The position numbers and the translations under genes were made by a program. A DNA stretch of 52,035 nucleotides from assembly GCA_964416755.1 (NCBI GenBank), contig CAYQFH010000002.1:1-52035 (forward strand), written 5' to 3'. How positions within the stretch are numbered: position 1 is the stretch's first letter; every line of letters begins with the position of its first letter. Of the stretch, positions 1 through 16,517 are shown one piece after another. Source of the stretch: an uncultured Piscirickettsiaceae bacterium. Lineage in GTDB: Bacteria > Pseudomonadota > Gammaproteobacteria > GCF-002020875. Under the pieces are notes generated by a model, which saw only the letters and a program-made list of their open reading frames with translations, made no database searches and had not been told where the DNA came from.

Positions 1-1604
1 TGATTACGCGGCAGATAGACTTCATTAATCCCTTTCTCCACATTCACATCAATCACCACTCCTTGCCGATCGCGCTGGGGCTCCAAAAGCGCCACCACAT
101 CCTGCAAGAAGGCACGTGGCGCAAAGCGGCTCATCTGGAAAATCGGTTTTGCATTACTGCGCTGCAAGCGAATGATCTCGGAGATATCCTGAATCCCCCC
201 CTCAACCCGGCTCAGCGGCTCGTCCATCTCCTTTTTCATCAAGCGCCCAACCACCTCATGTGTTCGCGAGATCACCTCTCTCTGGGTCTCGGGAGGAATT
301 TCATCTCCACGTTCCACAAGCTTTTCCAGTACATTGATTGCATCACTGAGAGCTTCTCTACTGCGCTTGACCTTGTAGACCTGCCCGGTGATACCTGCCA
401 ACACATTCCCAATGTTGTGCATGATACTGATCGACATCTCGGCAATACCTGACTGAAATGCAACCATCTGCTCTTTCTCTTCGAGTTCACGCTGTTTGGT
501 AATATCCCTCACCAACATCAAGTGATATCCCTCTTCAGCATGGATCACCAATGGCGTAGAGGAGAGCTGCAAAGAAAGCTGGTTCTCTCTCCGGTCAGAA
601 AACAGCAGTGTCTCTGTCAGGTGCATCTCACCATGTAGGAGCTGAACAACCTGATCTCTGACCGTTTCCGGAAAGAGTGCAGCAAAATCGGGGGAGTCTG
701 TATCCTCTTCAAGCTGGGAGAAGAGTCGTGCAGCCGCCGGATTATAGACCCGTATATCCCCTGTGCTATCCACAACAAACAATCCATCCCCCATATGCTC
801 CATGACTGAGGTGAGTTGCTCATTGCTCTGTTTCAGGTCTCGGGTACGCTCCGTCACTTTCTCTTCCAGGGATGCCAACAACACCTCAAGCTCACCACGC
901 AACTGCATCTCTGCCGCCATACTTTTCTGCAACACTTCCACCCCTTCGCAGAGATGAATCAACTCCTTGGAGGCAAACTCTTGTGGAACAACGGAAATAT
1001 TCCCCCCTGACTCGACGCCACGCAGGTACCGATCCACACGATGAATTGGTTTTACAACCAGTTGTCGCACCATCACGAACAGCATCAATGCCAGAAACAG
1101 AACCGCTCCACCCATCAGGTAGACAAACTGCCGCACCTGCAGTTCAAGCGCATCAAGCTGCTGCTGCAGATCCCAACGCAGAGCCACTATCCCGAAACGT
1201 TCCCCCTCAAAGATGATGGGGCGCTGTGTGGTCATCACCCCTCCCTCCATTAGGGAGGGGCTCTCCTCTCCTTCTGCACAGTGAGGGGCATCTTTGCCCC
1301 AAGTGAGCAGCGGTTGGTTTTGATAGTTGCAGAACTCCGCCCCCACCAGATTGGGGTGAATCTCGATCAATCCCTGCAGTGTTGTCTCCAGAATGGGGAT
1401 ATCTTCACTGAGTAGCGCATCCAGCAGTGTTGTCGAAAACAGTGCAGCCCGCTTATCGACCTCCACCTCTATCTGCTCCAACTGAAGTGTATGCGCAACC
1501 CGCAAGAGCACACTGCCGCCCAGCCAGAGCAGCAGCAGACTGACTCCCAGCATCACCCAGAAAGTCTGGACACCAATCGACCAGCTTTTGGGAGAAAACA
1601 ACAT
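1..1604 (-). CDS. Sensor histidine kinase (TM - HAMP-like - PAS - HisKA/HATPase), 3' end cut by the window edge
   Basis: Absent from the ORF track because it runs off the left edge. My minus-strand translation from ATG 1604-1602 reads MLFSPKSWSIGVQTFWVMLGVSLLLLWLGG (TM), then a second TM followed by VVKPIHRVDRYL (HAMP-like), MGDGLFVVDSTGDIRVYNPAAARLF (PAS) and EMSISIMHNIGNVLAGITG (H-box region). It stays open to base 1. The start lies 15 nt after the stop of the upstream binding-protein gene. Confidence 0.8.
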   Translation of the reverse strand, partial: MLFSPKSWSIGVQTFWVMLGVSLLLLWLGGSVLLRVAHTLQLEQIEVEVDKRAALFSTTLLDALLSEDIPILETTLQGLIEIHPNLVGAEFCNYQNQPLLTWGKDAPHCAEGEESPSLMEGGVMTTQRPIIFEGERFGIVALRWDLQQQLDALELQVRQFVYLMGGAVLFLALMLFVMVRQLVVKPIHRVDRYLRGVESGGNISVVPQEFASKELIHLCEGVEVLQKSMAAEMQLRGELEVLLASLEEKVTERTRDLKQSNEQLTSVMEHMGDGLFVVDSTGDIRVYNPAAARLFSQLEEDTDSPDFAALFPETVRDQVVQLLHGEMHLTETLLFSDRRENQLSLQLSSTPLVIHAEEGYHLMLVRDITKQRELEEKEQMVAFQSGIAEMSISIMHNIGNVLAGITGQVYKVKRSREALSDAINVLEKLVERGDEIPPETQREVISRTHEVVGRLMKKEMDEPLSRVEGGIQDISEIIRLQRSNAKPIFQMSRFAPRAFLQDVVALLEPQRDRQGVVIDVNVEKGINEVYLPRN

Positions 1605-1618
1605 TCGAGTACCAGAAA

Positions 1619-2470
1619 CTATTGGTCGAAAAAGGCTCCGCTATGGTGGATTGCCTTGCGTACGGTGTCATAGGCTGCATCATCTCCAGCGACAAAACCA
1701 TCCTTCTTCAATACTTTCAGCGCCGCCTTGTCATCAAATGCAAGCAAGGTATCCACCAGCGCCTGCTGCTGCACGGAGGGAAGATCTGCACGTCCGGCCC
1801 AGGCCTTGGTCGCCAGTTTGAACTCTTTCAACACGCGGATCTTTCTACCCTTTTTAACCAATTTTTTGAAGGTGCTGGATTTCAATGCACCCGCATCAAA
1901 ATCCCCTTTGGCTACTGCCTCACCAACCCGGTCATGGCGCCCCAAATACTCATACTTCTGCAAGTCTCTCTCGTTGACCCCCGCCTCAGCCAACAACAGT
2001 TGTGCAAAATAGCGACCTATCGTCGATTTTTCACTGCCAAAGGCAAAACGTTTCCCTTTCAGTTCTGCCATCGAAGTGATGGGGCTCTCCTGATGGGCAA
2101 TGATGTAACCACTGCGCATCTTCTTCCCCTTTTTACTCTCCATCGCCAGTAGTGTAACTGCGGGATTCTTCTCTTTGGTCAATACATAGGAGGCAGGTCC
2201 AAAACGGGCAAAGTCAACCTCCCCTGTCGCCAGTTTATTGATGGCCTGCTCATACGTCGGCGAGATTCGAGTATGAATCTTGACCGCCTCTCCCAGCTGT
2301 TGGCTCAAGCGCTGCTCCAGCTGACTCAATAGCGGGCGAAACTGAGTCACTACGGCCGATGCCTTGTCTGACGCATAGAGACCAAAGTTGAGGGTAACCT
2401 CAGCATGCACTGCCCCCCCCTGCAGCATCAACCCCGTCACTGCCGGAGCGATCCACCGTTTAAAATTCAT
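1619..2470 (-). CDS. Periplasmic PhnD/phosphonate-type substrate-binding-like protein, probably sensor-associated
   Basis: 283-aa ORF with an ATG preceded by a GGGAGG SD and the signal peptide MNFKRWIAPAVTGLMLQGGAVHA. Overall resemblance to PhnD-family periplasmic binding proteins. It sits between a receiver gene and a kinase gene. Confidence 0.7.
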   Translation of the reverse strand: MNFKRWIAPAVTGLMLQGGAVHAEVTLNFGLYASDKASAVVTQFRPLLSQLEQRLSQQLGEAVKIHTRISPTYEQAINKLATGEVDFARFGPASYVLTKEKNPAVTLLAMESKKGKKMRSGYIIAHQESPITSMAELKGKRFAFGSEKSTIGRYFAQLLLAEAGVNERDLQKYEYLGRHDRVGEAVAKGDFDAGALKSSTFKKLVKKGRKIRVLKEFKLATKAWAGRADLPSVQQQALVDTLLAFDDKAALKVLKKDGFVAGDDAAYDTVRKAIHHSGAFFDQ

Positions 2471-2526: not shown

Positions 2527-3075
2527 CTAGCCTGCTCTGTCCTTCAATACCCGACTCTCAGCTTCTCTCTCCTGCTCTCTTTGTCGATAGAGTGAAAAAA
2601 GTTCCGCAATCTGGGAGAGCTCTTCAGGAACAAATGGCTTTTTCAAATAGACAAAGTCCATGCCCAGTGCTTCACGAAGCTCGGCTGTGGAATAGTCTGC
2701 ATAGGCAGTGGCAATCACCAGATAGACTGATGGGTCGATTGCCCTGAGTCTGACTCCACACTCTACCCCTGTCATTCCCGGAGGCATTCGCACATCCAGG
2801 AACACGGTGGAAATGGGCTCATCCGCGTCAAACGCCTCACGGAAACAGTCGATCGCCTCTTCTGCAGAGCTTGCCTTGACGATCTTGAATGGTTGGCTGG
2901 GCTGAGTACCGTCACTACCCTCATCCCGATCTTCCGAGAGCAATTGCATCAATGCTGTTGTCTCGATCTGGTGTGTAGATCCCGCCAGGATCTCTTCGTA
3001 GGCGTTCAACACACCTTCGTCATCATCAACCACCATGATTTTTCGGCTAGACAGACTCAAGATTTTTCCATGCAC
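2527..3075 (-). CDS. Stand-alone CheY-like receiver protein (no output domain) with a ~30-aa acidic insertion
   Basis: Receiver motifs VVDDDE, FLDVRMPPGMTG (phospho-Asp), IATAYAD and LKKPF. The start is ambiguous (GTG 3075, TTG 3060 or ATG 3036). Confidence 0.8.
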   Translation of the reverse strand: MHGKILSLSSRKIMVVDDDEGVLNAYEEILAGSTHQIETTALMQLLSEDRDEGSDGTQPSQPFKIVKASSAEEAIDCFREAFDADEPISTVFLDVRMPPGMTGVECGVRLRAIDPSVYLVIATAYADYSTAELREALGMDFVYLKKPFVPEELSQIAELFSLYRQREQEREAESRVLKDRAG

Positions 3076-3129: not shown

Positions 3130-3852
3130 TCAACGAATCTTGTGACAAGCGACACAAGGCCCCCGGTCATTATGTGGCATATCCCCGTTCTGTACCTGCT
3201 GTTGGGTAATATCGGGCGGAGGCAGAATAATCAGATCCGGATCCGGCATGGTAAAGCTGCCATCACCAATGGTATGGCAGTCGGTACAGGGGCCACGATA
3301 GGCATGAGGTCGCGGATCTCCCGGCAGGATCATCGGAGCACCCTCGGCCTGAGCAAAACCGAGCTCTAGGCGGGCACGGATGATATAGACCATGCGATGC
3401 ATCACATAACGACCATTACTATCCTTCTCCTCCCCCTTGCGCATCACAGTAACCGCTGCATGGCGCAGATTTTTCACCTGACGACTGGCCTCGACAAAAC
3501 TCTCCAGATCGGTAACCGGCATATCCTTGATTGCGACAATAATATCGCCGCCCAGCATACCGCTCAACGCTGCATTGAGTGTCACTTCATTGATGATCAC
3601 CCCCTGCATGCCACGCGGATAGCCCAGCTGTTGACGCAGTTCGGCAGTCAGTTTCATCACGTCCATCCCCTGCCAGTGCGCTTCATAAAGCTTCATCCTG
3701 GAGGGAATGAAATTGCCGCTGCCGGGTGCAGCCAGATTGTAGACCGGATCGTTGGGTTGCTGCAGCGATGCTGAACCCGTGACCGCACCAGCCAGTGACA
3801 CAGAAGCCAGTGAAAGTGCAGCACCCATCAGCAGAGGTTGAAGTTTCACCAT
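3130..3852 (-). CDS. mamP: MamP-like protein: N-terminal hydrophobic segment, PDZ domain, two magnetochrome-type c-haem motifs
   Basis: Hydrophobic N-terminus MVKLQPLLMGAALSLASVSLAGA and a PDZ-like core GVIINEVTLNAALSGMLGGDIIVAIKDMPVTDLESF. Two copies of PH-x(2,3)-RGPC-x2-CH follow: RPHAYRGPCTDCH (CTDCH codons 3274-3288) and MPHNDRGPCVACH (CVACH codons 3142-3156). The ORF-track start at 3879 is a TTG; the ATG at 3852 lies 4 nt after the mamO-like stop. Confidence 0.75.
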   Translation of the reverse strand: MVKLQPLLMGAALSLASVSLAGAVTGSASLQQPNDPVYNLAAPGSGNFIPSRMKLYEAHWQGMDVMKLTAELRQQLGYPRGMQGVIINEVTLNAALSGMLGGDIIVAIKDMPVTDLESFVEASRQVKNLRHAAVTVMRKGEEKDSNGRYVMHRMVYIIRARLELGFAQAEGAPMILPGDPRPHAYRGPCTDCHTIGDGSFTMPDPDLIILPPPDITQQQVQNGDMPHNDRGPCVACHKIR

Positions 3853-3856
3853 AATC

Positions 3857-5860
3857 TTACTGCAATAACAGGAGTGCAAACGCGATCACCAGCATGATCC
3901 CGATAAAGGTCCAGCGCTGCTGGGTCACTGTGGTCCGCTCCTGGAAGTAGTAACCGAGGAAACCACCACCATAGGTGCTGGGCACCAGAATCATGGCCAG
4001 CGTGAGCGGAGTCTGCCACTCAAAGGAGCCAATGGAGACACCATAACCCAGAGAGACCAGTGTTGCAGTCAGAGAGGCCCAGAAGACCATCACAATGGCA
4101 TTGGCTCGTGCATTCTCGGCAGAAAGCCCCGCATATTTGCGCTGGAAGTACTGCTCCACTACGCCACCACTCACCCCCAACAGACCGGTCAAAATGCCAA
4201 GAGGGCCACCCATGATGGGGGAAGTTGCCCAACCGCGCCGTACGTCGACCTCTTCCGAGTCAAGCAGGAAATTATCGATACGCTCCTCTTGATTCCTGGC
4301 CACCGGGCGCACATGGGATTCACGCTCTTGCAGATCTCCGCGCAACTCAAAATAGACCACCAGCGCCATTGCCAGCGCAAAGAGACCGAGTAAATAGCCG
4401 ATCACATGATCATAGAGATTATGTCCGAGGAAGTAGCCCAATACCGCACCCACGATGGTAGCCGGTAACAGCTCCTTGATACGGCGGGTAATGATCACCC
4501 CGGCAAACAGCTGGCGCAGGGCGGCAATACCGTAGGTGAAGAGGTTGGTGATGTAGATTACCGGACGCACCATGAAGACACCGTAACCAAACACCAACAT
4601 CATTCCGGCCACGGCGACAATGCCCCCTCCCATTGGTACCAGTGTACCCACTGCACCCGCAAAGACTCCCAACAATACCAGCCCGACAATGGCATCCAGC
4701 TTATAGAAGCCGAGATCAAAGCTGGAGTCATGCTCCAGATCCATCAAGCTGACCGAGTCCCCCGGTGCTCCGATATGCGCTACCCGCTGTTGCCCTTCTG
4801 CGGGCTCTGCGGTCACTGCAGCAACATTCTGAGCCAGTAGTGCTCCGGGATTGTTCTGATTCTGCTGATCCTGAATTGCAGCCAACTTCTCCTGACGGGT
4901 CTGCTGACGGGCCTGATCCCACCATGCAGCGGCCATCCCCTTGGCTGTACCCGACTGCATCGCACTATTTCCATTTGGAGTAATGGTTCCATTTTCAGCT
5001 GGCGCAACCGGTTTGGCAATCTTCTTCAACCCTTTGGAGGTCAGATCCACCACATCCTGAAAATGGGCACGAATCACGTGGGCAGGGACTACAAAACCTT
5101 CCGCCATCCCGCCTTGTCCCTGCAACAACAGACCGATCCCAACCAACTCTGCCTGCTGGTTGATTACCGCGCCACCGCCCTGCTCCCAACGCACCATCGC
5201 ATTGGTCTGCATCAGATGGGTTATCGGGTTGCCTGCAACCTGGCGTACCTGATCATTCAACTGCAAGATTCCAGGGTTGGCAACCACAGCCCCTTGCACA
5301 TCCTTGCCGATCGCAATCAACTGACTCTGCAGCGGAGCATTGCGGCTGTCTGCCAATTTCAGGTAGAGAAAACGATCATTGGTAACCATCTTCAGCAACA
5401 CCAGATCATGCGCTGGATGCTTCTTTACCACCTCGGTCTTGTAGAGACGAATACCGCTGCCACCCGCCACCTGAATCTGCAACTGATCCGGGTTATTTAC
5501 ACTGTGCAAAGTGGTAATGACATAACCATCCGGGTGCACTAAAACACCTGAAGAAACAACACCAGCACCTTGATTTACAATGGAAACAACCGCTGACCCA
5601 GCTGGAGTAACCAGATCAGTCTGTCCACCGGCAATATTCAAGCCACCCGCAAGACCACTCTGCGGTGTAGTATCCGAGGAGAACGATGAGAAGAAGTTGC
5701 TGACCGCATAGGATTCAACCTCATACTCTTCCAGATCAACATCATAGAGGTAGAGCGCCCAACCAAATAGCATCAGTGCTGCCAATGGCAACAGTGCCAG
5801 CGGGATCTGCCACGGCCTTTTACAGAAGACGATTTTGTTATCTAATCCTGCGAGTTTCAT
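3857..5860 (-). CDS. mamO: MamO-like fusion: TM anchor, degenerate trypsin/HtrA-like domain, C-terminal TauE/SafE-type transporter domain
   Basis: 667 aa. The protease-like region keeps His (YVITTLHSV) and Asp (HPAHDLVLLKM), but the GNSGG nucleophile box reads EQGGGAV (Ser replaced by Gly). The C-terminal ~270 aa are multi-TM with TauE-like glycine-rich helices (PMGGGIVAVAGMMLVFGYG, GILTGLLGVSGG). Confidence 0.75.
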   Translation of the reverse strand: MKLAGLDNKIVFCKRPWQIPLALLPLAALMLFGWALYLYDVDLEEYEVESYAVSNFFSSFSSDTTPQSGLAGGLNIAGGQTDLVTPAGSAVVSIVNQGAGVVSSGVLVHPDGYVITTLHSVNNPDQLQIQVAGGSGIRLYKTEVVKKHPAHDLVLLKMVTNDRFLYLKLADSRNAPLQSQLIAIGKDVQGAVVANPGILQLNDQVRQVAGNPITHLMQTNAMVRWEQGGGAVINQQAELVGIGLLLQGQGGMAEGFVVPAHVIRAHFQDVVDLTSKGLKKIAKPVAPAENGTITPNGNSAMQSGTAKGMAAAWWDQARQQTRQEKLAAIQDQQNQNNPGALLAQNVAAVTAEPAEGQQRVAHIGAPGDSVSLMDLEHDSSFDLGFYKLDAIVGLVLLGVFAGAVGTLVPMGGGIVAVAGMMLVFGYGVFMVRPVIYITNLFTYGIAALRQLFAGVIITRRIKELLPATIVGAVLGYFLGHNLYDHVIGYLLGLFALAMALVVYFELRGDLQERESHVRPVARNQEERIDNFLLDSEEVDVRRGWATSPIMGGPLGILTGLLGVSGGVVEQYFQRKYAGLSAENARANAIVMVFWASLTATLVSLGYGVSIGSFEWQTPLTLAMILVPSTYGGGFLGYYFQERTTVTQQRWTFIGIMLVIAFALLLLQ

Positions 5861-5890
5861 CTACTACACCATGATTTACGCTATCACCAA

Positions 5891-5933
5891 GAACAGACAA
5901 AGCCCCTGCAAGGTTGTACTCCTCAGCAGGGGC
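5891..5933 (-). terminator. GC-rich hairpin plus T-rich tail between the mamC-like and mamO-like genes (possible partial terminator/attenuator)
   Basis: The minus strand reads GCCCCTGC-(16 nt)-GCAGGGGC followed by TTTGTCTGTTCTT. The 8-bp perfect stem is at 5902-5909 / 5926-5933. Confidence 0.35.
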
Positions 5934-5959
5934 AGAGCGACTAAAACGACAACCGAATA

Positions 5960-6325
5960 TTAAGACTCAACGCCTTCAGCAAGAATTTCGTCCGCCTCAT
6001 CATTGTCACGCATGCGCAGCTCCAGCTGCTCCATGCCACGATCATAGGCATACTTGGCACCGGTTGCAGCAACCAGCGCAGTCCCCAGAGAGACCGCCAA
6101 ACCACCACCTACCGCACCAGCGGCCACTGCACTGAAAGCCGTTGCCAGCCCAGCACCCAGCCCCTCTTTACCAGTGTCATAGATTGCATCCTTGGTCTCT
6201 ACCAGACCATCACGGTGATCCTTGATATTCCTGGCCGCTGCACCAGAAGCACCAACCACCGCACCGAGCACACCCACACCGGAGGCGCTCTGTGCCAGAT
6301 ATTGCGCCAAATTAAATGCTGCCAT
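5960..6325 (-). CDS. mamC: MamC (Mms13/Mam12)-like small two-helix magnetosome membrane protein homologue
   Basis: 121 aa, with an ATG preceded by a GAGGGAGAA SD. It aligns by eye over nearly its full length with MamC as I remember it: [16 protein letters not shown], then [40 protein letters not shown], then an acidic tail. Confidence 0.75.
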   Translation of the reverse strand: [121 protein letters not shown]

Positions 6326-6451: not shown

Positions 6452-7048
6452 TCAGAAAAGCATCAGGTCATCTGCATTACGGTTACCGTACGCTTTGGCC
6501 TCCTGAATGGCCTCCTCTTTGGTCGCGCCACGCAGCAGCGCATCAAACAGCACCTTGCCCTCTTCCATGGTGAAAGAGCTGTAAACCTGATTTTGTAGCT
6601 CTTTCCACTCATTCGGGTTGAACAAGCGCTGCTGATCATTCACCAGATCGGCAGTGTTCTCCAGACTGCCTGCGATGTGGTTTAGCTGTTGGGTCAGACG
6701 ATCATAGAACTGAAAGCTGATGACTGCACTTTTCAGATCGCTGATCACCAGATCACACTTGTTATCGAGCCGATCCAGCATCTCCTGATACTGAGTACCA
6801 CAGCTCTCAGGCACTTCACCATCCACATCGCGCGCTGTCTGCTTGATTTCCTGCATATAGCGATTCATATTGGTGAAGGCCTCGATCAACGAAGTGATCG
6901 ACTCATCACCGGTAGACATGGAGTATTCGATGGCTGAGACTCCGACACGAAACATTCGTACCGTCTCTCGAACTTGACTCCAATCGAGGTCTGGCTTCTC
7001 AGCGGATGACGGAACGGATCGCAACTCACTCATGAATAATGCACTCAA
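6452..7048 (-). CDS. Soluble hypothetical protein with a CheZ-like F-Q-x-x-D-R-L-T-Q-Q helix motif
   Basis: 198-aa ORF (TTG 7048; first ATG at 7033) with no TM segment. The ISFQFYDRLTQQLNHI segment is reminiscent of the CheZ DFQDLTGQ active-site helix. The function is not established. Confidence 0.5.
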   Translation of the reverse strand: MSALFMSELRSVPSSAEKPDLDWSQVRETVRMFRVGVSAIEYSMSTGDESITSLIEAFTNMNRYMQEIKQTARDVDGEVPESCGTQYQEMLDRLDNKCDLVISDLKSAVISFQFYDRLTQQLNHIAGSLENTADLVNDQQRLFNPNEWKELQNQVYSSFTMEEGKVLFDALLRGATKEEAIQEAKAYGNRNADDLMLF

Positions 7049-7105: not shown

Positions 7106-7519
7106 TTATCGACGTCCAAACAGCCGGGAAAGCATTCTGAATGGGTGGCGAATCGCATAGGTTGTACTCTTCTTCTTCAGCAGTTTGAACTCCACCGCAG
7201 TCAACATATAGATGATCTCGCGGCTCAGGGCCTTTACCTCCAACAGCGCCTCGTTGGCCTCCTCTTTTCGACCGTGCTTATGGGAGCGAATCACCCGCCT
7301 CACCGCTTGGTGAAACTGTTTATGGTCACGCTCCAACTGCTGAATCTCGACATTGTTGCCAAACTCCCGCAATCCCTCCTCATAGAGCCATACCCCCAGC
7401 GGACAGTCCTCATGGGAGTCCACCTCAAGATGCTGCAGATGGTGTGTATCCAGCAACTCCTCCAGCTGCAGTTCCCAGGAGAGATGCACCAACCGCATAT
7501 AACCCAAATCAGAAATCAT
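7106..7519 (-). CDS. Stand-alone CZB (chemoreceptor zinc-binding) domain protein
   Basis: It matches the remembered CZB pattern exactly. HLSW (H-x2-W) is followed by 23 aa, then CPLGVW (C-x-L-G-x-W), then 21 aa, then HKQFH (H-x3-H). Its ATG overlaps the stop of the upstream ATPase-like gene (ATGA at 7516-7519). Confidence 0.85.
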   Translation of the reverse strand: MISDLGYMRLVHLSWELQLEELLDTHHLQHLEVDSHEDCPLGVWLYEEGLREFGNNVEIQQLERDHKQFHQAVRRVIRSHKHGRKEEANEALLEVKALSREIIYMLTAVEFKLLKKKSTTYAIRHPFRMLSRLFGRR

Positions 7520-8556
7520 GAAAGTCCCTTTCTCTTGAATAAAACCATGGAACGAATCTCCAGACGGTAACGCAATTCGCCACTGATCCTCCCCTCAAGA
7601 TGGCTGGAGAAGCTACGCTCAATCACCAGATCTGGAGTCAACTGCAAACAATAGATGGTCTTCCCTCCCTGGGCACTGCTCTGCAGAATGCGTGCACGCC
7701 GCCTCGACTTCTCATCAAATACGATATCTTCCGGCCGGATCAGCAGTTCAAGACGTGTTCCGTCCGGCAACCCGAAACCGGTGGGATGGTCAATCATGCC
7801 GAGCTCTGTATCGAGGCGCAGTTCATCATGCACTACCCCCTTGACCAGCACACCCGCTCCCATATAACGGGCCACACTCCGCTTCTGTGGTGTCGCATAC
7901 AGCTCCTGCGGTGCGCCCCACTGCAGCAGAATTTCGTTCTCCATCACACCGGCAAAATCACCCGCAAAAAGTGCGCCTTGCCGCACTGCCGTGGAAAGCA
8001 AAATACCGCAACCAAAATGTTCCACGATCCCCTCCAGACGATCCAGCAGGCGATAACGTGCCTCCACGCCAAGATCGAGCAGCGGCTCCTCCAGCAGCAG
8101 CAATACCGGACGGGTTACCAGTGCACGGGCAATCAACAGATAGCGTCTGGTCTCTTCATCCAGGACATCGGGGTAGCTGGCAGCATAATCCGCCAACTTC
8201 AACCCGGAAAGCACCTTCATACAGTGCTCACGCTTGTTGGAAATCCTGAAGTTCTGCAACACCAGACGCAGATTATCCAAAATAGTAAGATGTGGGTAGA
8301 AGCTTCCATCTCTCGGCACCCAGGCAATGGGGCGCTCCCAAGGGGGGGGAATTTTGCCACTCCGTGCAATCAGATCCCCACGCAGAAAGATCTCCCCCTC
8401 TTCAAACCCTTTCAATCCGGCGATCAGGCGGAGCAGTTCCCCTTTACCACTCTCCTCCTCCCCTAGAAGCAGACCGAGCTTACGCTCGGGAAGCGCCAGA
8501 GAAACTCTGGCACCGGTTGGCATTTGCAGTTGATGCAGCTTGAGTAGGTCAGCCAT
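7516..8556 (-). CDS. FbpC/PotA-family ABC ATPase-like protein with degenerate catalytic motifs and a C-terminal TOBE-like domain
   Basis: Collinear with ABC importer ATPases, but each motif is altered. Walker A is GEEESGKG (not GxxGxGKS/T), the signature is LDEETRRY (not LSGGQ), Walker B is LLLLEEP (not hhhhDEP), and the H-loop His is absent (LLSTAVRQ). The C-terminal LLIRPEDIVF block resembles FbpC. The ATG at 8556 overlaps the permease stop by 8 nt; the ORF-track GTG start is at 8580. Confidence 0.8.
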   Translation of the reverse strand: MADLLKLHQLQMPTGARVSLALPERKLGLLLGEEESGKGELLRLIAGLKGFEEGEIFLRGDLIARSGKIPPPWERPIAWVPRDGSFYPHLTILDNLRLVLQNFRISNKREHCMKVLSGLKLADYAASYPDVLDEETRRYLLIARALVTRPVLLLLEEPLLDLGVEARYRLLDRLEGIVEHFGCGILLSTAVRQGALFAGDFAGVMENEILLQWGAPQELYATPQKRSVARYMGAGVLVKGVVHDELRLDTELGMIDHPTGFGLPDGTRLELLIRPEDIVFDEKSRRRARILQSSAQGGKTIYCLQLTPDLVIERSFSSHLEGRISGELRYRLEIRSMVLFKRKGLS

Positions 8557-9295
8557 AGATAAAGGGCCCAAGTGCAACACCCAATGGCGTATAGAGCAGT
8601 GAAATCATCATCACCAGCAGCGTCCCTCGTGTCTTCATCGACACACGCCCTGCGCTTATCTGTTCAGGCAAAACCCGTGGCAATCTCCTGTAACTGCCCA
8701 GCAAGAGTGTCAGCGAAAGAGAGAGCAGCAGAACCCACTGCAGCAGCAACAATGGCTCTGGCTGTTCCAGAAGATAGAGCACCACCGGCAATGTCTCCAC
8801 CCCCAGCCGCTCAGCCACCCCGAAATCAAAATTGACCACCAACAGGGAGGCACCAAACACCCAAACCATCAACCGCAATAGCAGTGGTCGAACCACCATC
8901 GCCGGAGCCACACGATCAACCAACCCCAATTGGTAGCGCTGTTCACGCCCTACAGCCGCTGTGACTGCAAACAGTTTGACTGCAAACAGGGTTGAGAGGG
9001 CCACAGTTGAGAAAAGCAGCACAAAGAGGAGCGCAATACGCCCTTGGAAGAGTTCAATCCAGTGCAGCGGTACCCCTTCTGCAACCAATCTGGCCGGGGT
9101 AAGCAGCGCACTGAACACCGCCCCCCAGGCGATCCAGCGCATCAGCGTGCTGATTCTGCGGGTCACCAACATCCAGCCAATCCACCCTGAAAGCGGAAAT
9201 ACCAGGAGAGAGAGCGCCGCAGTTAATAACAGAGACTCCAGCAGCGGGGCAACGGCTGGAGGAAATTCAAGAAGCGGAAAATAGGACAGACTCAT
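8549..9295 (-). CDS. Multi-TM ABC permease-like membrane protein (divergent)
   Basis: 248 aa with about 6 hydrophobic segments and a weak EAA-loop-like stretch, FGVAERLGVETLPVV. Translationally coupled to the ATPase-like gene. Confidence 0.55.
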   Translation of the reverse strand: MSLSYFPLLEFPPAVAPLLESLLLTAALSLLVFPLSGWIGWMLVTRRISTLMRWIAWGAVFSALLTPARLVAEGVPLHWIELFQGRIALLFVLLFSTVALSTLFAVKLFAVTAAVGREQRYQLGLVDRVAPAMVVRPLLLRLMVWVFGASLLVVNFDFGVAERLGVETLPVVLYLLEQPEPLLLLQWVLLLSLSLTLLLGSYRRLPRVLPEQISAGRVSMKTRGTLLVMMISLLYTPLGVALGPFIYG

Positions 9296-9325: not shown

Positions 9326-9520
9326 TTAAAGTGAGTAGTTGTCTCTCAATCCCAATTTATTGCGATATGCCTCAGACTGATAGTGATCTCTTCGCTGACA
9401 ACAGAGGTTCCACAATCGAGAAACCTTGTAGAGAGAGAAAGAGAGCACCCCACTGAGAACTACTTTGGCGACAACCAGTACAGAAATTCCGAGAGAGGCA
9501 GCAATCAACATCATGATCAT
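9326..9520 (-). CDS. Small (64-aa) membrane protein, first gene after the Fur-box promoter
   Basis: The ATG at 9520 has an AAGGAG SD 7 nt upstream. The sequence is MIMMLIAASLGISVLVVAKVVLSGVLSFSLY followed by a basic/Cys tail. The longer ORF-track start at 9628 would overlap fur. Confidence 0.5.
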   Translation of the reverse strand: MIMMLIAASLGISVLVVAKVVLSGVLSFSLYKVSRLWNLCCQRRDHYQSEAYRNKLGLRDNYSL

Positions 9521-9557: not shown

Positions 9558-9585
9558 ATTATATGCAAATGATAACGATTATCAA
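9558..9585 (-). promoter_or_regulatory. Sigma-70-type promoter with an embedded Fur box
   Basis: The minus strand reads TTGATA-(16 nt)-TATAAT. The 19-mer at 9565-9583, gcaaatgataacgattatc, matches the Fur consensus GATAATGATAATCATTATC at 15/19. The core palindrome TGATAAC-G-ATTATCA (9570-9584) lies across the -35/spacer. Confidence 0.7.
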
Positions 9586-9593: not shown

Positions 9594-10028
9594 TTACTCT
9601 TTTTTCTGGCAACTTCCGCAGACACCATAGAGCGTCAATGCATGGTCAGAGATCTGGAAAGAGTAATTGTCAGCAATTTCATGCTGCAGCTTCTCTATCT
9701 TGGCCTCAAAGAACTCCTCCACTGCACCACAGCTGGTACAGAGCAAATGGTCATGATGATCTCCACGATCCAACTCGAACACCGAGTGGCCGGTCTCGAA
9801 ATTGTGCCGCTTGAGTATTCCAGCCTGCTCGAACTGGGTCAATACGCGATAGACAGTGGCCAGTCCGATCTCCTCCTCTTTTTCGATGAGCGTACGGTAG
9901 ACCTCTTCTGCACTGAGGTGAATCTGTTCGCTCTCCTCCAGTAGCGCCAAAATACGCATACGGGGATGCGTTACCTTCAGGCCAGCACTCTTCAGTTGCT
10001 CTTTTTCAGATAGCGATTGATCAATCAT
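9594..10028 (-). CDS. fur: Ferric uptake regulator Fur
   Basis: 144 aa with LKVTHPRMRIL, ATVYRVLTQFEQAGI, the HHDHLLC-x2-CG motif and a C-terminal CGSC. A full-length Fur-family match. Confidence 0.95.
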   Translation of the reverse strand: MIDQSLSEKEQLKSAGLKVTHPRMRILALLEESEQIHLSAEEVYRTLIEKEEEIGLATVYRVLTQFEQAGILKRHNFETGHSVFELDRGDHHDHLLCTSCGAVEEFFEAKIEKLQHEIADNYSFQISDHALTLYGVCGSCQKKE

Positions 10029-10080: not shown

Positions 10081-11283
10081 TCAGAAGCGGATCGCTGTAC
10101 TGACCGGCTGCTCACCCTGTCTGATTTGTTGCTTTATGTCATCAATTTTATGTTGAAGCTGCAGTGTAGCATGCTTGACGATCTGATTGACCTCTGCCGA
10201 AGTGGTCACTGCATGTAATTTACTATTCAGCGCCTCCAACTGGCGACCATTGCTCTTTCTCACTTCACCAATCTCATAGCGCAACTCTTCCACAATACTC
10301 TTTTCACGACCATCCCCTCGCTGCAGTACCCCCTCATCCGCAGTCACCGGTATCCGTTGCTGGGAGAGCTGCTCCAACTGTTCAGCAAGCTGCTGCTGCG
10401 TCTGCTCAACAACTGCAAGTTGCTGCCTTAGCGGTTCCAGCAACGGTCGTAATTGCAACTCGGCAGGCACTTGCATGGAATCTATCTCATCTGTTGCTCC
10501 ACTGCCCTCAATCTGCTGCTGCATCTTCTGCATCAGGGCTGACTGTTCCGCAATCTGTCTGCTCTGCTCCAGAACCAACTGTTGAGTCTGCTTCAGTGCT
10601 CCCTGCAGTTGCTGCATTAATTGCGCCTGTTCAGCCTGCTGCTGTCTCGAATCATCAACAGCCTGTCTTGACTGTGCCAGCTCTTCATTCAACTGAGAAA
10701 AGCGTTGCTCGACCCCCCTGGAGATTTCGGCAGATTGCCGGGGTGCCACAGGTTGCTGTTGCCGGTTCAGTTCATTCAACTGCTGTTGCAGCTGAGCGAC
10801 TCTGTCCTCCATCTCCCGCAATTGCAGAGATTGAACCTCAGTCGAGTCACTTCCTCCCCCCTGTTCCAACTGATCCATACGCTTACCGATCCGGATCTGC
10901 TCCCGGCGGCTATTGGCCACCAGCTTGCCAATCTCACCCCGCATTTCATCCAGCGTAGAGGGAACCCCATCAATACGCTCTTTTAGCAACGCGACTTCAG
11001 ACTCCAACTGTTTTACCTCATGCTCAGAGAGGCTGGGAACGGGAACCACAACGGGTCGGGGCACTTCGCTCATCTCCTCAAGCGGCTGCTTAATCAGAAA
11101 TTCGGAAGTGACCGGCTCAATCACCGGTTCAGGCACACTATCCCCCTGCTGTATCAGCTGACCCAACGCATCGCCCTTAAAACAGCGATCCTCCCCAGGA
11201 CGATAGATGGCTTCTCCCAAATGGTCACCACTCACCTTAATACGGTCAAGCACCTGATTGCTAATCGATGAATCTACTTTCAT
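10081..11283 (-). CDS. Gln/Glu-rich coiled-coil protein of unknown function
   Basis: About 400 aa of heptad-like Q/E/L-rich sequence (LQQQLNELNRQQQ, QQQAEQAQLMQQLQG) after a ~60-aa N-terminal globular segment. The ATG at 11283 is preferred over the ORF-track GTG at 11373. Confidence 0.6.
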   Translation of the reverse strand: MKVDSSISNQVLDRIKVSGDHLGEAIYRPGEDRCFKGDALGQLIQQGDSVPEPVIEPVTSEFLIKQPLEEMSEVPRPVVVPVPSLSEHEVKQLESEVALLKERIDGVPSTLDEMRGEIGKLVANSRREQIRIGKRMDQLEQGGGSDSTEVQSLQLREMEDRVAQLQQQLNELNRQQQPVAPRQSAEISRGVEQRFSQLNEELAQSRQAVDDSRQQQAEQAQLMQQLQGALKQTQQLVLEQSRQIAEQSALMQKMQQQIEGSGATDEIDSMQVPAELQLRPLLEPLRQQLAVVEQTQQQLAEQLEQLSQQRIPVTADEGVLQRGDGREKSIVEELRYEIGEVRKSNGRQLEALNSKLHAVTTSAEVNQIVKHATLQLQHKIDDIKQQIRQGEQPVSTAIRF

Positions 11284-11433
11284 GACGTCCAGTATAAAAG
11301 GAGCCCTCTGACAGCACAACAGAACAACTGGATAAGGAAACGCCTGTTTTGCAAACTGTCTCTTCAGATCCACAGCATATGGACGCTAAATTCAGAGAAC
11401 CAACAGAAGAAAAACATCAATGGGACAAAACCA

Positions 11434-11740: not shown

Positions 11741-12019
11741 CTACCCAAACTCGTGCTCCTCATCAAAGATCTCATCGTGATGAGCACCTGCATGGCTGAC
11801 ACGATAAACCAGATAGATCAGATAAGGGGCTGCAACCAGAAGAATGACTCCAACATTCAGATTACCGGGAATCAGGCCATCATAGAAGCGGTCCAGATTG
11901 ATCCAGCCGGTCACAATCGACACGCCAATCGGGATCACAAACAGGCCAATCGAGAACCACACCAGAAAACGCAACCACTCCGTCCCTAACCACTCCGCAC
12001 AACAGATCACTCTATTCAT
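11741..12019 (-). CDS. Small two-TM membrane protein with an acidic/His-rich C-terminal tail
   Basis: The ATG at 12019 is preceded by AAGGTGAG. There are two hydrophobic helices, and the tail reads HAGAHHDEIFDEEHEFG. Confidence 0.55.
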   Translation of the reverse strand: MNRVICCAEWLGTEWLRFLVWFSIGLFVIPIGVSIVTGWINLDRFYDGLIPGNLNVGVILLVAAPYLIYLVYRVSHAGAHHDEIFDEEHEFG

Positions 12020-12257
12020 CACACTCACCTTAATCCGAAAAACGCTTTATCTATAACAACAAACTTACATAAATAATAATCTATAAGATTTGTTACTGAA
12101 ACCAATACAACAAATGTGCCAAGTGAAACGACAGTTTCTTGTCACTGGCGATATAACATTGAATTTCATGGAGTAAGCGAAAAACATTTCACAATCGAAA
12201 TATTACCAATATGTTATATTTGGCGTTTTATTCAGCCGATCACAACCGCTGCCTACT

Positions 12258-15200
12258 ATGCTTCTCCAGCCGCTGGCACTTTTTCGAAAATTGAAATTGA
12301 TCCACAGGATTCTGATCCTCCAGATCCTGTTGCTGGTTCCGTTTGTCCAACTGCTGCTCCACCACAATCAATCAGTCAGTGCGCTGCAATCCGAGAACAG
12401 ACTCTTCTCTCAAGGGGTGGAAAAAGTGCGGCAGCTTTCTCTGTTGCAAGAGCATATTGCACAATATCGCGGCCTTCACCATGGAGAGCAACAACGATCA
12501 CGCCCTGCCCGTTCCGAGACAACCGAACTACTGAAAGAGCTTCACCAGAACATTGACAGCGAAATTGCATCATTGAGTGACGCTACACTCCCCACACTCA
12601 ATCCGCATCTGATTGAGATCATCCAGACGCAGTGGCAGGCACTTGCCCACTCCTCCAACTCACATAAAGCCGACCATTTCAGCGGCTATACGAGACTGAT
12701 CAGTCAGGTTCACCACCTGATCAAACAGGTCTCCACAGTTAGCTCCCCAAAACTCAATCCCGAGCACCCGGAACTCCTCAAGATATACTCTCTCTCGACC
12801 CACACCATTGCAGCACTCAAGGAGCAGATGGGACAACTGCGAGGCATCACTTACGGAGCCCTTCAATCTGGACAGGATTTGACCAGCAATCAGCAGTTCC
12901 AGGTGCTGTTACCTATTACACTGTCTAAAATCGCAACCTACCGGGCTCTGGTTCGGGATCAACTCGTTGGCATTTACCAGTATAGCCCTGAACTCTACAG
13001 AGAGAGCTTTTCACTCTTTTCCGACTACTCCATCGAGTTGGCAGCACTCTTTGAACTGCTCAATTGGGAACTTGAAAACACTAGCGACGACTCTTCCTCG
13101 CTGCAACTATTCCAATCACCAGATGCCTTTTTCCAGCAGGTCAGTTTTCAGATCGAGCTGCTCGACCAGCTTATCCAGAATCTCTTTGCCCACATTGAGC
13201 AGCATCTGGCAGAAGAGCAGCAACAACTTATCCTCGAACATAACCGGCACCTGCTTTTACTGGTTCTGATACTGATTACAGCACTCCTCTCGCTCGTCTG
13301 GGTGCTCTACGACAACAATCGGGGAAATCTACAGTTACGCAGCTATCTACAACAAAAAGACCCCCTGCAACTGAACAACATGGAGACAGGTGACCACCTT
13401 TCCAATCTCGACCATGAACACTTGCAGATTTGGCAAGCCTACCACCATCTCGAGCAACATCTGGAACATGAAACCGCCCGACTACTCACACTGAAACAAG
13501 GTGTGGACCGTGCAGCAATGATCATGATTACCGACTTGGAGGGGGCCATTCTCTATGTCAACGAGTCCCTGATTGATCGAACCGGATACAGCGAAGCAGA
13601 ATTGTTGGGCAGTAAACCCAGCATATTGAAGTCAGGAGAGACATCCAGAGAGACCTACCAACGCCTCTGGAAGAGCATTCTTGCCGGCAAGATATGGAAA
13701 AACCAGCTCGCCAACCGAAGTCGTTCCGGCGAGCTATACTGGGTTGAGGAGACCATCGTCCCGCTACTGGATGACAATGATGAAGTCCAGGAGTTCTTCG
13801 CCATCCATGTCGAAATCACGACACAGATGATTGCGGAACAGCGCCTTGAGGGGGAGGTTAAAGAGCTGAAGGCGCTGCAGTCCGTTACTACAGAACATCA
13901 AAACCAGCAGTTGGATAGCGATTTCACAGTGACCTCACAGATGGAAGAGGACAATTCCCTCCTTCCGGTAGAGCCACAGAACGAACCCATCCGTGTGCTT
14001 GCCGTAGACGATGAGAAGGCCATTCTCGATAGCTACCGCGTACTACTGAGAGAGGATGACAGCGAAGCAGTGGATCAACTGGGCTCCTTGCTTGAGGGCT
14101 CTTCCATCACGTCCGAATATACTCCCCCCTTTATTCTGGAGTGTACAACCAGTGGTGAAATAGCCGTTGAGAAGCTGCGTTCTGCAATGAACCGTGGGAA
14201 GCCCTATCAGGTAGTCTATCTGGACATGTTGATGCCTGGCGGCTGGGATGGGCTCAAAACAGCAAAAGAGATTCTGCGCATCGACCCCATGGTGAGAATC
14301 ATCGTCATCAGTGCCTGGAGTGATCATAAACCTGCAGAGCTCAAACCTGTACTCGGAGAGCACTTCATCTATCTGAAAAAACCATTCAGCCGTGAAGAGT
14401 TGATCCAGCTTACCCACTATATGGCCGAGGATTGGCGCCGCACACAACAGCTGACACAAAGCAAGGAGTCACTCTCCCAGATCATGCTGGATCTTACAGA
14501 GAGTAACAGGCAGCGTCAGCACGAACTGGATAGCCAGCGAATTTATCAGATGATTCTGGTCACACTCTCGACCAGTGCACCACTCTTTTCCGGTGATCGC
14601 CAATCCGGATACAACGAGATCACACAAGCGACACTGGAGGCGCTGGGTGTAGACCGTGTCACACTATGGCGCCTGGAGGAGGAAGAGGGTGAACAGATAC
14701 TCATTGCCGACGACTGTTATAACGTGAAAGAGCAGCAACATCACTCTGGTGCCAGACAATACACAAGAGATTATCAGGAATTCTGGAACCAGATTGAGCA
14801 CCGGCAAGTTGTTCGCATCGATGACACAGCCCCCCTGCTCGAAAGCCTTTCTCAACCATCCAACTACTTCAATGAACACGATATTCAGTCGCTGATGATC
14901 TCTCCGATCTTCTATAACAACGAACAGACCGGTGTAATCACCGCTGAGGTGCAGACAGAATCGCGCGTCTGGAAACTGGAAGAAGCGACTTTCCTCTCCT
15001 ATGTCAGCAACCTCGTTCCAACCATTGAAATCTCAGCGGCACGCAAAGATGCAGAGACTCGTGCAGAAAATGCCAACAAGGCCAAGGATGATTTCCTGGC
15101 AACAATGAGCCACGAGCTCCGCACCCCGCTCTCCAGCATGATCGGCTATGGAGACATCCTCAGCGAAAGCCCATTGAACCATGACCAGCAAGATCTGGTG

Positions 15201-16517
15201 TGCACGATACAGCTGGCCGGAAAAACTCTGCTTGCACTCGTCAATGATATTCTTGACATCTCCAAGATCGAGGCGGGCAAATTTGAACTGGATCACGCTC
15301 CCTTCTCTCTGGAAACTCTGCTCCATGAGATGGACATGATGTTCTCTCCCAAAGCAACTCTCAATCAGATCGATTTCAAGATTGAGCAGAGCGGGCCACT
15401 CCCCTCCACCCAACTCGCCGGTGACGAGCGTCGTATCATACAGATATTGATCAACCTGATTGGCAACGCCATCAAGTTCACCAACGACGGATCGGTCTCG
15501 CTGACGCTCTCTCAAGAAAGAGATTCAATTACAGAAGATCCGCAGAGAGGGCTTTTCCACTTTGCCGTCAAGGATTCAGGCATCGGCATTGCCGCCGACG
15601 TGATGGATCGCCTGTTCCGCCCATTTGAACAGGCAGACGGCACCATCTCCCGAACTTTTGGGGGAACCGGATTAGGGCTCTATATCTCCAGAGTCCTGGC
15701 CCACATGATGGAAGGTGAGATTCAACTCCAGAGCATTGAAGGAGAAGGGTCTACCTTCACGCTCTCCATTCCGCTGGAGATCACCGACCTGCCACTCCCC
15801 GACTCTGCCACTCACACCATCCAGAAAACCGAGCGTGGCAATATTCGACTGAAAGGGAAGGTACTGATCGTCGAAGATACAGCAGAACTGCAACAGCTGG
15901 AGAAACGGCTGGTGGAGGCGACCGGTGCAACCGTTGAGTTGGCCAGTGACGGAGAAGAGGCACTTGCAATGGGGCTCGGTGGCTCTTACGACCTGATTCT
16001 AATGGATATGCAGATGCCGAAAATGGACGGTATTACTGCCACCCAGCTACTGCGAAACTCCAGTGTCACCACCCCAATCGTTGCCCTTACCGCCAACGTC
16101 ATGCAGAAACATCGCGATGAGTTCAACAGTGCCGGATGCAATGACTTTCTCTCCAAACCGATCGATCAGGCTGCACTGAAAAAGGTACTCTCCACCTATC
16201 TGGAAGAAGGAGAACTATCTGTCATTACTCCAGACACCAACCAGATGCCTCTCTCTGATGAGCTTACCGCTCTGTTCGTGGAACGCCTGATTGAGTCAGA
16301 ACAGCAGATCAATCAGTTTTTCGAGCAACAAGCGTGGGCTCAGCTACGCCAGGTCATTCATACGCTCAAGGGATCCGGCAGCTCTTTTGGCCACCCTGAA
16401 ATTACCGAACTCTCCCGATCTGTTGAGCAACTGCTCATCCAGGAAAATCACAGCGCTCTCGACGATGCACTCAATCAGCTCATCAAGGTGATACAGACCG
16501 CCCAATCAGCCTCCTGA
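12258..16517 (+). CDS. Multidomain hybrid sensor kinase (N-terminal sensor, TM, PAS, internal receiver-like domain, GAF-like, HisKA, HATPase, REC, HPt)
   Basis: 1419 aa. Domains in order: PAS (ITDLEGAILYVNESLIDRTGYSEAELLG), an internal REC (VLAVDDEKAIL ... YLDMLMPGGWDG ... LKKPF), the H-box FLATMSHELRTPL, HATPase (GTGLGLYIS), a REC (VLIVEDTAELQ ... LILMDMQMPKMDG) and HPt (HTLKGSGSSFG). Confidence 0.9.
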   Translation: MLLQPLALFRKLKLIHRILILQILLLVPFVQLLLHHNQSVSALQSENRLFSQGVEKVRQLSLLQEHIAQYRGLHHGEQQRSRPARSETTELLKELHQNIDSEIASLSDATLPTLNPHLIEIIQTQWQALAHSSNSHKADHFSGYTRLISQVHHLIKQVSTVSSPKLNPEHPELLKIYSLSTHTIAALKEQMGQLRGITYGALQSGQDLTSNQQFQVLLPITLSKIATYRALVRDQLVGIYQYSPELYRESFSLFSDYSIELAALFELLNWELENTSDDSSSLQLFQSPDAFFQQVSFQIELLDQLIQNLFAHIEQHLAEEQQQLILEHNRHLLLLVLILITALLSLVWVLYDNNRGNLQLRSYLQQKDPLQLNNMETGDHLSNLDHEHLQIWQAYHHLEQHLEHETARLLTLKQGVDRAAMIMITDLEGAILYVNESLIDRTGYSEAELLGSKPSILKSGETSRETYQRLWKSILAGKIWKNQLANRSRSGELYWVEETIVPLLDDNDEVQEFFAIHVEITTQMIAEQRLEGEVKELKALQSVTTEHQNQQLDSDFTVTSQMEEDNSLLPVEPQNEPIRVLAVDDEKAILDSYRVLLREDDSEAVDQLGSLLEGSSITSEYTPPFILECTTSGEIAVEKLRSAMNRGKPYQVVYLDMLMPGGWDGLKTAKEILRIDPMVRIIVISAWSDHKPAELKPVLGEHFIYLKKPFSREELIQLTHYMAEDWRRTQQLTQSKESLSQIMLDLTESNRQRQHELDSQRIYQMILVTLSTSAPLFSGDRQSGYNEITQATLEALGVDRVTLWRLEEEEGEQILIADDCYNVKEQQHHSGARQYTRDYQEFWNQIEHRQVVRIDDTAPLLESLSQPSNYFNEHDIQSLMISPIFYNNEQTGVITAEVQTESRVWKLEEATFLSYVSNLVPTIEISAARKDAETRAENANKAKDDFLATMSHELRTPLSSMIGYGDILSESPLNHDQQDLVCTIQLAGKTLLALVNDILDISKIEAGKFELDHAPFSLETLLHEMDMMFSPKATLNQIDFKIEQSGPLPSTQLAGDERRIIQILINLIGNAIKFTNDGSVSLTLSQERDSITEDPQRGLFHFAVKDSGIGIAADVMDRLFRPFEQADGTISRTFGGTGLGLYISRVLAHMMEGEIQLQSIEGEGSTFTLSIPLEITDLPLPDSATHTIQKTERGNIRLKGKVLIVEDTAELQQLEKRLVEATGATVELASDGEEALAMGLGGSYDLILMDMQMPKMDGITATQLLRNSSVTTPIVALTANVMQKHRDEFNSAGCNDFLSKPIDQAALKKVLSTYLEEGELSVITPDTNQMPLSDELTALFVERLIESEQQINQFFEQQAWAQLRQVIHTLKGSGSSFGHPEITELSRSVEQLLIQENHSALDDALNQLIKVIQTAQSAS

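Follow-up and report, generated by a model that had tools for sequence, protein, structure and literature searches.

What do three adjacent magnetosome-like genes signify on a contig that carries no other gene of the kind? The question is raised by contig CAYQFH010000002.1 of assembly GCA_964416755.1, from an uncultured Piscirickettsiaceae bacterium, of which positions 1 to 52,035 of the forward strand (the whole stretch analyzed, hereafter the window) are considered here. A reading of the letters without database searches (the sequence-only reading) had proposed that a minus-strand trio encodes homologues of the magnetosome proteins MamC, MamO and MamP, and had offered three scenarios for it: a satellite of a full cluster elsewhere, a relic of a lost cluster, or a repurposed iron-handling module. 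Contigs of sister species, a metagenome-assembled genome (MAG) with the two cluster parts unlinked, and a matching clade of MamK sequences favor the first scenario and disfavor the other two. The trio is probably an essential module of a split magnetosome cluster, the main part of which would lie elsewhere in the genome.

Identity and architecture of mamC, mamO and mamP

All three genes are present on the minus strand where they had first been placed (Table 1), and comparisons with NCBIfam, Pfam and the PDB bear out the proposed identities: mamC, mamO and mamP of the window are genuine magnetosome genes. The likeness of the first product to MamC/Mms13, seen by eye along almost its whole length, is reflected in a match to the NCBIfam MamC equivalog NF038051 that covers model positions 1-97 of 97 at 130.3 bits (cut-off 100, E 2.4e-38). 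Hydropathy clearly reveals its second transmembrane (TM) segment, while the first, Gly/Ala-rich segment lies under the hydropathy threshold used. Orthologues in loci L001, L005, L010, L011 and L079 are 83-94% identical and of equal length; a PDB sequence search with MamC returned no match.

The architecture proposed for MamO, a TM segment followed by trypsin-like and TauE domains, is supported by hydropathy and by Pfam, which places Trypsin_2 at residues 104-242 and TauE at residues 394-662. The protein matches the NCBIfam MamO model over its full length (E 1.4e-159) with 532 bits, a score that does not reach the 800-bit equivalog cut-off. Despite this shortfall, the MamO model is by far its best NCBIfam match, and its top PDB match is the MamO protease domain of Magnetospirillum magneticum AMB-1 (5HMA, E 1e-41). 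In AMB-1 MamO, the protease site of which is dead, a transition metal is bound by H148 and H263, and magnetite nucleation depends on each of the two residues (PMC4794232). These metal-binding residues correspond to H151 and H266 in the window protein, with D152 equivalent to D149 and G228 at the nucleophile position held by T225. The Ser nucleophile is absent, with Gly there instead, and the di-histidine site is retained, H151 and H266 being invariant among 28 homologues.

For mamP, the mechanical open reading frame (ORF) reaches a TTG at 3879 and would encode 249 amino acids (aa). The ATG at 3852 is the probable start, because orthologues are 240 aa long and begin 4 nt past the mamO stop codon. 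The architecture read from the sequence, a hydrophobic N-terminus with a PDZ domain and two magnetochromes, agrees with the Pfam assignment of PDZ_2 and two MCR domains and with the two CXXCH motifs, CTDCH (position 198 of the 249-aa ORF product) and CVACH (position 242). MamP scores 299.6 bits against the NCBIfam MamP model (E 2.7e-89), 0.4 bit short of the equivalog cut-off of 300, and residues 49-248 match the PDB MamP structure 4JJ0 (E 3e-47).

These features align the trio with the canonical mamAB operons of AMB-1 and Magnetospirillum gryphiswaldense MSR-1, which share the dead-protease MamO with its di-histidine site and TauE domain, as well as a MamP that joins a PDZ domain to two magnetochromes; the best PDB match for window MamP is the structure from strain MO-1. 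The mamO-mamP adjacency was rightly said to mirror these operons, as the two genes are adjacent and nearly abutting in both. The differences are that window MamO shares only 33-40% identity with its alphaproteobacterial counterparts, that it has Gly in place of Thr where the nucleophile formerly was, and that mamC precedes the pair; nor is mamN found upstream or mamA-Q-R-B downstream, as in the canonical arrangement. The usual home of mamC in Magnetospirillum is the mamGFDC operon. Window MamC passes the MamC equivalog, but its gene is not beside mamD, mamF or mamG, and MamD-like and mmsF-like genes occur instead in the main cluster of the relatives.

The magnetosome cluster in related species

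The remainder of a cluster was sought in the window with profiles for 17 Mam proteins built from the mamAB operons of known magnetotactic bacteria, comprising MamH, I, E, J, K, L, M, N, A, Q, R, B, S, T and U besides MamO and MamP. The MamE profile included MamO sequences, and only top MamE hits and NCBIfam were relied upon for that family. MamO and MamP alone were detected in the window. As positive controls, the same profiles recovered MamH, I, E, K, N, Q, R, B, S and T in related loci at 85-650 bits, and MamL, MamM and MamA in further related contigs. A six-frame tblastn search of the window with 30 lineage-specific cluster proteins likewise found no further mam gene; its matches were of MamO-1, a second MamO of the lineage described below, to window MamO, of MamT to the magnetochromes of MamP, and of one response-regulator query to the receiver domains of kinases, the last weak and generic. 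From a system-level core set (mamA, B, E, I, K, M, O, P and Q plus mamL), the window holds mamO and mamP, plus mamC. By Pfam, the remaining window genes are housekeeping: kinases, NtrC, RelA/SpoT, YgiQ, TonB-ExbBD, UbiA, TadA, GuaA, GuaB, PFOR, HypF, a TonB-dependent receptor and PpiD. Profiles, tblastn and Pfam agree with the sequence-only reading, which had recognized none of mamA, B, M, K, I, L, Q, E, H and N in the 52 kb.

The trio can be called an orphan for this contig alone, however, as sister species carry the main cluster beside the same genes. Homologues of window MamO at 68-88% identity come, where the source is named, from MAGs of uncultured marine Gammaproteobacteria, labeled Piscirickettsiaceae or Gammaproteobacteria by NCBI, and some single protein sequences of the lineage are present on more than 100 contigs. 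A 12-gene syntenic block that includes mamC-mamO-mamP is common to every relative recovered. Both cluster parts share one contig in GCA_973355605.1 (loci L067 and L001) and in ENA k141_1258803 (loci L080 and L006), with mamK located 10.4 kb and 18.4 kb, respectively, upstream of the window-type mamO. On contig CCWXVF010000015.1 (MamO 81% identical), the region upstream of the block runs mamQ-R-B-S-T, a 239-aa gene, an mmsF-like gene and mamH-I-E, and continues with a 377-aa gene, mamK, a rubredoxin gene and a receiver gene before the block begins. On k141_1258803, whose MamO is 79-80% identical and which has the downstream cassette of the window, the order is main cluster, four conserved genes, hybrid kinase and block. 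A metagenome scan with MamB added Joint Genome Institute contigs of related species, in which the main cluster extends to the left to a receiver gene, mamL, mamM, a second mamO and mamA.

In the sequence retrieved, the main cluster comprises mamL-M-O1-A-Q-R-B-S-T, a mamD-like gene, mmsF, mamH-I-E and mamK. NCBIfam scores MamM, Q, B, H, I, K and D above their cut-offs, and for A, R, S, T, E, N and O of the relatives the Mam models are the best hits. As judged from these gene orders, the lineage possesses a complete magnetite-type cluster with the trio as its far end, because the main cluster precedes the block on sister-species contigs. Neither MamP nor MamC was found in approximately 21 kb of main-cluster sequence from four species, and the window-type module carries the only mamP of the lineage in the sequence retrieved.

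The order mamC-mamO-mamP is normal in this lineage and recurs in the more distant gammaproteobacterial MAG loci L041 (Sedimenticola) and L044 (nS315bin38). The arrangement, although correctly described by the sequence-only reading, is not unusual. Pfam supports the receiver, PhnD-like binding protein and kinase reported downstream of mamP. This cassette between mamP and proS is variable: the three genes are found in the window and in L005, mamN takes their place in L001 (12799-14076) and L009, and nothing separates mamP from proS in L010 (12768-13110). The downstream anchor proS-MIF-ilvBNC is constant in all relatives. In the sequence retrieved, mamN was found solely at the mamP-proS position, and the species of the window may lack mamN.

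The second, divergent MamO of the lineage, MamO-1, lies within mamL-M-O-A-Q-R-B-S-T (L082 5911-7917, L083 2897-4816, L084 and L087). MamO-1 and the window-type protein, MamO-2, are 37-39% identical and form separate old clades, with MamO-1 clustering with the MamO of the gammaproteobacterial MAG L047. The first His of MamO-1 is followed by Asn (H-N), the canonical Asp being absent, and its second His is shifted by one residue; its NCBIfam MamO score of 587 bits is likewise under the 800-bit cut-off. Of the two, the MamO copy of the module is the only one that retains the experimentally essential di-histidine site.

These comparisons point to a division of labor in which the trio would be the distal mamC-mamO-mamP operon of the magnetosome cluster of an uncultured marine gammaproteobacterium. 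From what is established for the families, MamO would combine a catalytically dead trypsin-like domain, whose di-histidine site binds a transition metal and nucleates magnetite, with a fused TauE-type transporter; MamP, as a dihaem magnetochrome iron oxidase, would set the balance between Fe(II) and Fe(III); and MamC would be a membrane protein whose acidic loop shapes the crystal. The module would thereby supply a nucleating, an iron-oxidizing and a crystal-shaping protein, with the rest of the cluster building the vesicle and the chain. Since the main cluster, in the sequence retrieved, has a divergent MamO and no MamP, these would be functions that it lacks on its own.

Synteny between the window and its relatives breaks at approximately 16.5 kb. 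The window hybrid kinase, the last gene held in common with the clusters of relatives, is 59-69% identical to the one that stands between the mamK and fur-mamP parts in L080 and L071. In relatives, four conserved genes come after the kinase, then two more conserved genes, a receiver gene, a rubredoxin gene and mamK; in the window, the kinase is followed by an unrelated kinase, an NtrC-type regulator and housekeeping genes, within 35 kb of unrelated sequence. A rearrangement right after the shared kinase would have parted the module from the main cluster in this genome, in which case a different contig of the genome should carry the main cluster. As an observation on the kinase itself, it is one intact ORF of 1419 aa in the window, whereas three ORFs (417, 432 and 326 aa) occupy the site in L080 18341-21029 and L005 1-3531, which suggests frameshifts or decay of the gene in that species.

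Unlinking of the two parts is seen elsewhere in the lineage. The mamK side of the widespread species leads into ndk-rlmN, the parts are unlinked on contigs of 97-156 kb, and one MAG of this species holds both MamK (HON68_09765) and a mamC neighbor (HON68_09415) under its locus tags. In MAG CAYFOU01, mamK is on contig 66 and mamCOP on contig 113, and contig 66 ends in the orthologue of the window kinase. Three indirect lines suggest that the genome of the window has a main cluster elsewhere. The MamO nearest to that of the window (88%, P0002) was recovered from run SRR13694707, in which a mamK locus is present as well. MamK sequences that are 95-99% identical to one another form a tight clade that parallels the MamO clade of the window protein, and it includes the NCBI-assembly sequences P0171, P0172 and P0169, which fall at the phylogenetic position expected for the species of the window. 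The 193-aa protein encoded next to mamC in the window and P0171 are both recorded in NCBI and Logan sources, which is a lead and not a link.

The clusters of this lineage can be found in public metagenomes and may already have been reported, at least in part, in 2020, when six marine gammaproteobacterial MAGs with mam-only clusters and a G+C content of 48.4-49.1% were described (Uzun et al., PMC7449369). The widespread relative, at 47.5-48.5% G+C, resembles those MAGs, which may or may not be of the same lineage. The window represents a different species, with 52.5% G+C and a MamO 71% identical to that of the widespread species, and here the module is unlinked from the main cluster. Among other gammaproteobacterial magnetotactic MAGs (nS315bin38 and nTSbin2 of Lin et al.; Sedimenticola), mamC-mamO-mamP is shared by L041 and L044, the latter also with an ABC transporter ATPase gene upstream of mamC, and L047 resembles the main cluster of the relatives in placing a MamO-1-type copy within mamL-M-O-A-Q-R. 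The lineage is widespread in marine metagenomes and thus a candidate pelagic magnetotactic group, all members being uncultured MAGs or metagenome contigs. Its cluster appears modular, with mamC-mamO-mamP anchored beside proS-ilv and its connection to the main cluster severed in separate events in different species, and this modularity is relevant to the gain, rearrangement and loss of magnetosome clusters. Of secondary interest are the two ancient MamO paralogues, the Fur box described below and the repeated breakage of the cluster.

Two side observations concern the clusters of relatives. A second MamK-family actin gene occurs in L073 (8716-12082), L074, L075 and L076 (2247-5362); it is 81-83% identical to cluster MamK over a C-terminal query of 204 residues, has as neighbors receiver genes and a homologue of the 211-aa gene found after mamK, and lies in a housekeeping context of mutS, cinA and ligT. 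It has the appearance of a mamK mini-module that was duplicated and lies apart from the cluster. In the widespread species, toxin-antitoxin-like pairs, judged by ORF translations, and an IstB-like fragment flank the main cluster on its left (L082 1-4600), as would be typical of a genomic-island border.

Alternatives to a split cluster

Several points weigh against a split cluster. No additional mam gene lies within 46 kb upstream or 3 kb downstream of mamO, and no MamK is tied to the assembly of the window, from which the data examined are this one contig. MamO-1 and MamO-2 are never on one retrieved stretch, and their co-occurrence rests on synteny and shared MAG membership. The string of genes from the 64-aa gene to the truncated kinase at the contig end is on one strand with intergenic gaps of -32 to 126 nt, and promoter and terminator scans of the window gave counts at or below shuffle expectation, so that we infer operon structure from spacing alone. 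Finally, the stretch from fur to the 193-aa gene may be native chromosome rather than cluster cargo; window Fur scores above the cut-off of the equivalog for housekeeping Fur, and members of the 193-aa family are frequent among Gammaproteobacteria that are not magnetotactic. Counter to a native origin, homologues of the ABC transporter ATPase and of the chemoreceptor zinc-binding (CZB) protein recur beside mam genes in L044, L047 and L023. The ATPase homologue is 2 kb upstream of mamC in the distant gammaproteobacterial magnetotactic MAG locus L044, and a CZB-like gene is found directly before mamL in L047 and beside the cluster in Magnetospirillum sp. UT-4 (L023). Fur-family genes lie approximately 3-7 kb from mamO in the alphaproteobacterial magnetotactic loci L018, L021, L032, L037 and L061. 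Fur-family and CZB-like genes may be recurrent companions of magnetosome clusters.

The junction past the hybrid kinase could also be an artefact of assembly, the true cluster being contiguous as in L080 and a contig chimera having joined the kinase end to an unrelated region from this genome or from one related to it. Similarity does end right past the kinase stop codon, the source is evidently a metagenome-assembled contig, and the region behind the orthologous kinase in L080 and L071 consists of the same four genes followed by the mamK part. A search of the junction for repeats, tRNAs, Rfam families and compositional change found none of these, however; the G+C and tetranucleotide profile is uniform across it, and GC skew is negative throughout. 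Another species of the lineage has the two parts naturally unlinked, on contigs of 97-156 kb, and what lies between them differs among species in any case; a chimera is therefore unlikely.

We regard as less probable still, and doubtful in its own right, the view that the main cluster was lost or never present, leaving fur, the ABC/CZB genes and mamC-mamO-mamP to periplasmic or membrane iron handling without magnetosomes. This would fit the lack of other mam genes in the 52 kb and of a MamK tied to this assembly, as well as the proximity of the module to fur, a Fur box and a transporter in a window that also encodes TonB-ExbBD and a TonB-dependent receptor. However, the main cluster is present in all relatives with more sequence, and NCBI assemblies contain MamK sequences from the clade expected. 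MamO, MamP and MamC are moreover known only as proteins of the magnetosome membrane, acting within a vesicle formed by MamI, L, Q and B (established knowledge; PMC9840458). Nor do the genes themselves resemble remnants: mamC, mamO and mamP are intact and full length relative to their orthologues. Pairwise ratios of nonsynonymous to synonymous substitution rates (dN/dS) between the trio and five relatives are 0.04-0.13 and no higher than among the relatives, although these values are rough as dS is saturated (at least approximately 0.9). In a relative-rate test against the nearest relative, L079, window MamC, MamO and MamP show 30 lineage-specific changes versus 64 (p < 0.001), with no asymmetry in the neighboring genes. 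By these measures the trio is under strong purifying selection and not accelerated, and a relic is disfavored because the window branch is the shorter one, the opposite of what a decaying relic would show.

Within that view, a more specific possibility, to which we give slightly less weight again, is that the main cluster is truly absent and that the Fur-linked module of ABC, CZB, mamC, di-histidine mamO and mamP genes is a stand-alone device for iron oxidation and nucleation, maintained by purifying selection. If true, this would be the first evidence of a selectable function of MamO, MamP and MamC outside the magnetosome organelle.

Location outside the main operon is well known for mam genes, as exemplified by mamCDFG, mms6, mamXY, feoAB and 'mamAB-2' remnants (PMC9840458), and by the AMB-1 magnetosome islet with its limO and limE genes (limO in PMC4794232). 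Unlike known satellites, which are mostly duplicates or accessory genes, the present module has the only mamP of the lineage in the sequence retrieved and a di-histidine mamO. That the trio is a duplicated, dispensable copy of main-cluster genes, like the AMB-1 islet or limO, is the least probable explanation and can hardly be sustained: two MamO paralogues do exist in the lineage and duplicated mam genes outside the main operon are on record (PMC9840458), but the paralogues belong to different old clades at 37-39% identity, the window-type copy is the one that retains the canonical H/D pair and second His where the main-cluster copy has H-N and a displaced His, and the module is found in every relative while neither MamP nor MamC was found in the approximately 21 kb of main-cluster sequence from four species.

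Gene neighborhood and predicted iron control

Upstream of the trio, the module continues into a conserved gene string (Table 1). Orthologues of the 193-aa protein are 67-89% identical and hold the same position in all relatives, where in this lineage the gene always adjoins that for the stand-alone CZB protein. The family comprises at least 218 proteins, mostly from non-magnetotactic Gammaproteobacteria such as Methylophaga and Methylocucumis, with an invariant PDLDWSQ.RET motif and a QFYD motif, and is labeled 'chemotaxis protein' in one source. An AlphaFold2 model of the protein is a long helical hairpin (predicted local distance difference test score 70); Pfam, NCBIfam and a fold search with the model yielded no function and no significant PDB match. 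The 248-aa polytopic protein, syntenic across relatives at 35-63% identity, has no Pfam or NCBIfam match and is presumed to be the permease partner of the ABC ATPase. The 430-aa coiled-coil protein is 35-37% identical to its orthologues in L001, L010 and L011.

Table 1. Features of the window discussed in the text, in order of position.
Feature	Position	Strand	Description
Kinase	1-1604	-	Pfam; mamP-proS cassette; cut by contig end
PhnD-like binding protein	1619-2470	-	Pfam; mamP-proS cassette
Receiver	2527-3075	-	Pfam; mamP-proS cassette
mamP	3130-3852	-	240 aa from ATG 3852; signal/anchor segment, PDZ, two magnetochrome c-type haem motifs
mamO, paralogue type 2	3857-5860	-	667 aa; N-terminal TM approximately 18-41, trypsin-like pseudoprotease, C-terminal TauE/TSUP
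mamC	5960-6325	-	121 aa; Gly/Ala-rich hydrophobic N-terminal segment, acidic loop at residues approximately 32-53, second TM segment
Conserved 193-aa helical protein	6452-7033	-	Directly upstream of mamC; no function assigned
Stand-alone CZB protein	7106-7519	-	137 aa; Pfam CZB E 1.9e-11; syntenic in all relatives
ABC transporter ATPase, PotA/FbpC/WtpC type	7516-8580	-	Pfam ABC_tran and NCBIfam; syntenic in all relatives
Polytopic membrane protein	8549-9295	-	248 aa; 5-6 TM segments by hydropathy; overlaps ABC ATPase gene
Single-TM protein	9326-9520	-	64 aa; first gene past Fur box; orthologues in all relatives
Sigma-70-like promoter with overlapping Fur box	9558-9585	-	TTGATA-16-TATAAT (11/12); directly past fur stop codon
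fur	9594-10028	-	144 aa; Pfam FUR E 2.4e-45; NCBIfam Fur equivalog 182.7 bits (cut-off 146)
Glutamine-rich coiled-coil protein	10081-11373	-	430 aa; fast-evolving; only weak SMC-like coiled-coil matches
Two-TM protein	11741-12028	-	95 aa; upstream end of block; orthologues in L005, L010, L011; TM by hydropathy
Hybrid histidine kinase	12258-16517	+	PAS-GAF-HisKA-HATPase-2xREC-Hpt by Pfam; last gene common with clusters of relatives
Synteny breakpoint	16518-16776	.	Similarity to relatives stops right past kinase stop codon

The Fur box at the head of this string, TGATAACGATTATCA (plus strand, 9570-9584), has one mismatch to the 7-1-7 consensus, with 0.16 chance matches expected per window. It is conserved at the orthologous site, once per locus and with 0-2 mismatches, in five species (L001/L067, L005, L009, L010 and L011), the L009 box being a perfect 7-1-7 match. 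The classical 19-mer Fur box had no match in the window at three mismatches or fewer. The predicted box is likely to place at least the ABC/CZB transporter genes under iron control, and transcriptional read-through from its promoter to mamCOP is possible. The presence of a canonical fur gene and a conserved Fur box heading the string suggests a testable route for iron control of the magnetite nucleation genes.

Other observations on iron uptake and regulation in the window lie farther from the module. TonB-ExbD-ExbD-ExbB genes are located at 26316-28896 and a TonB-dependent receptor gene at 47905-49881, inside which a Fur-box-like site with two mismatches (49347-49361) probably arose by chance. 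An H-NS-family gene lies at 21567-21920, approximately 5 kb past the breakpoint, between an SseB-domain gene and relA/spoT.

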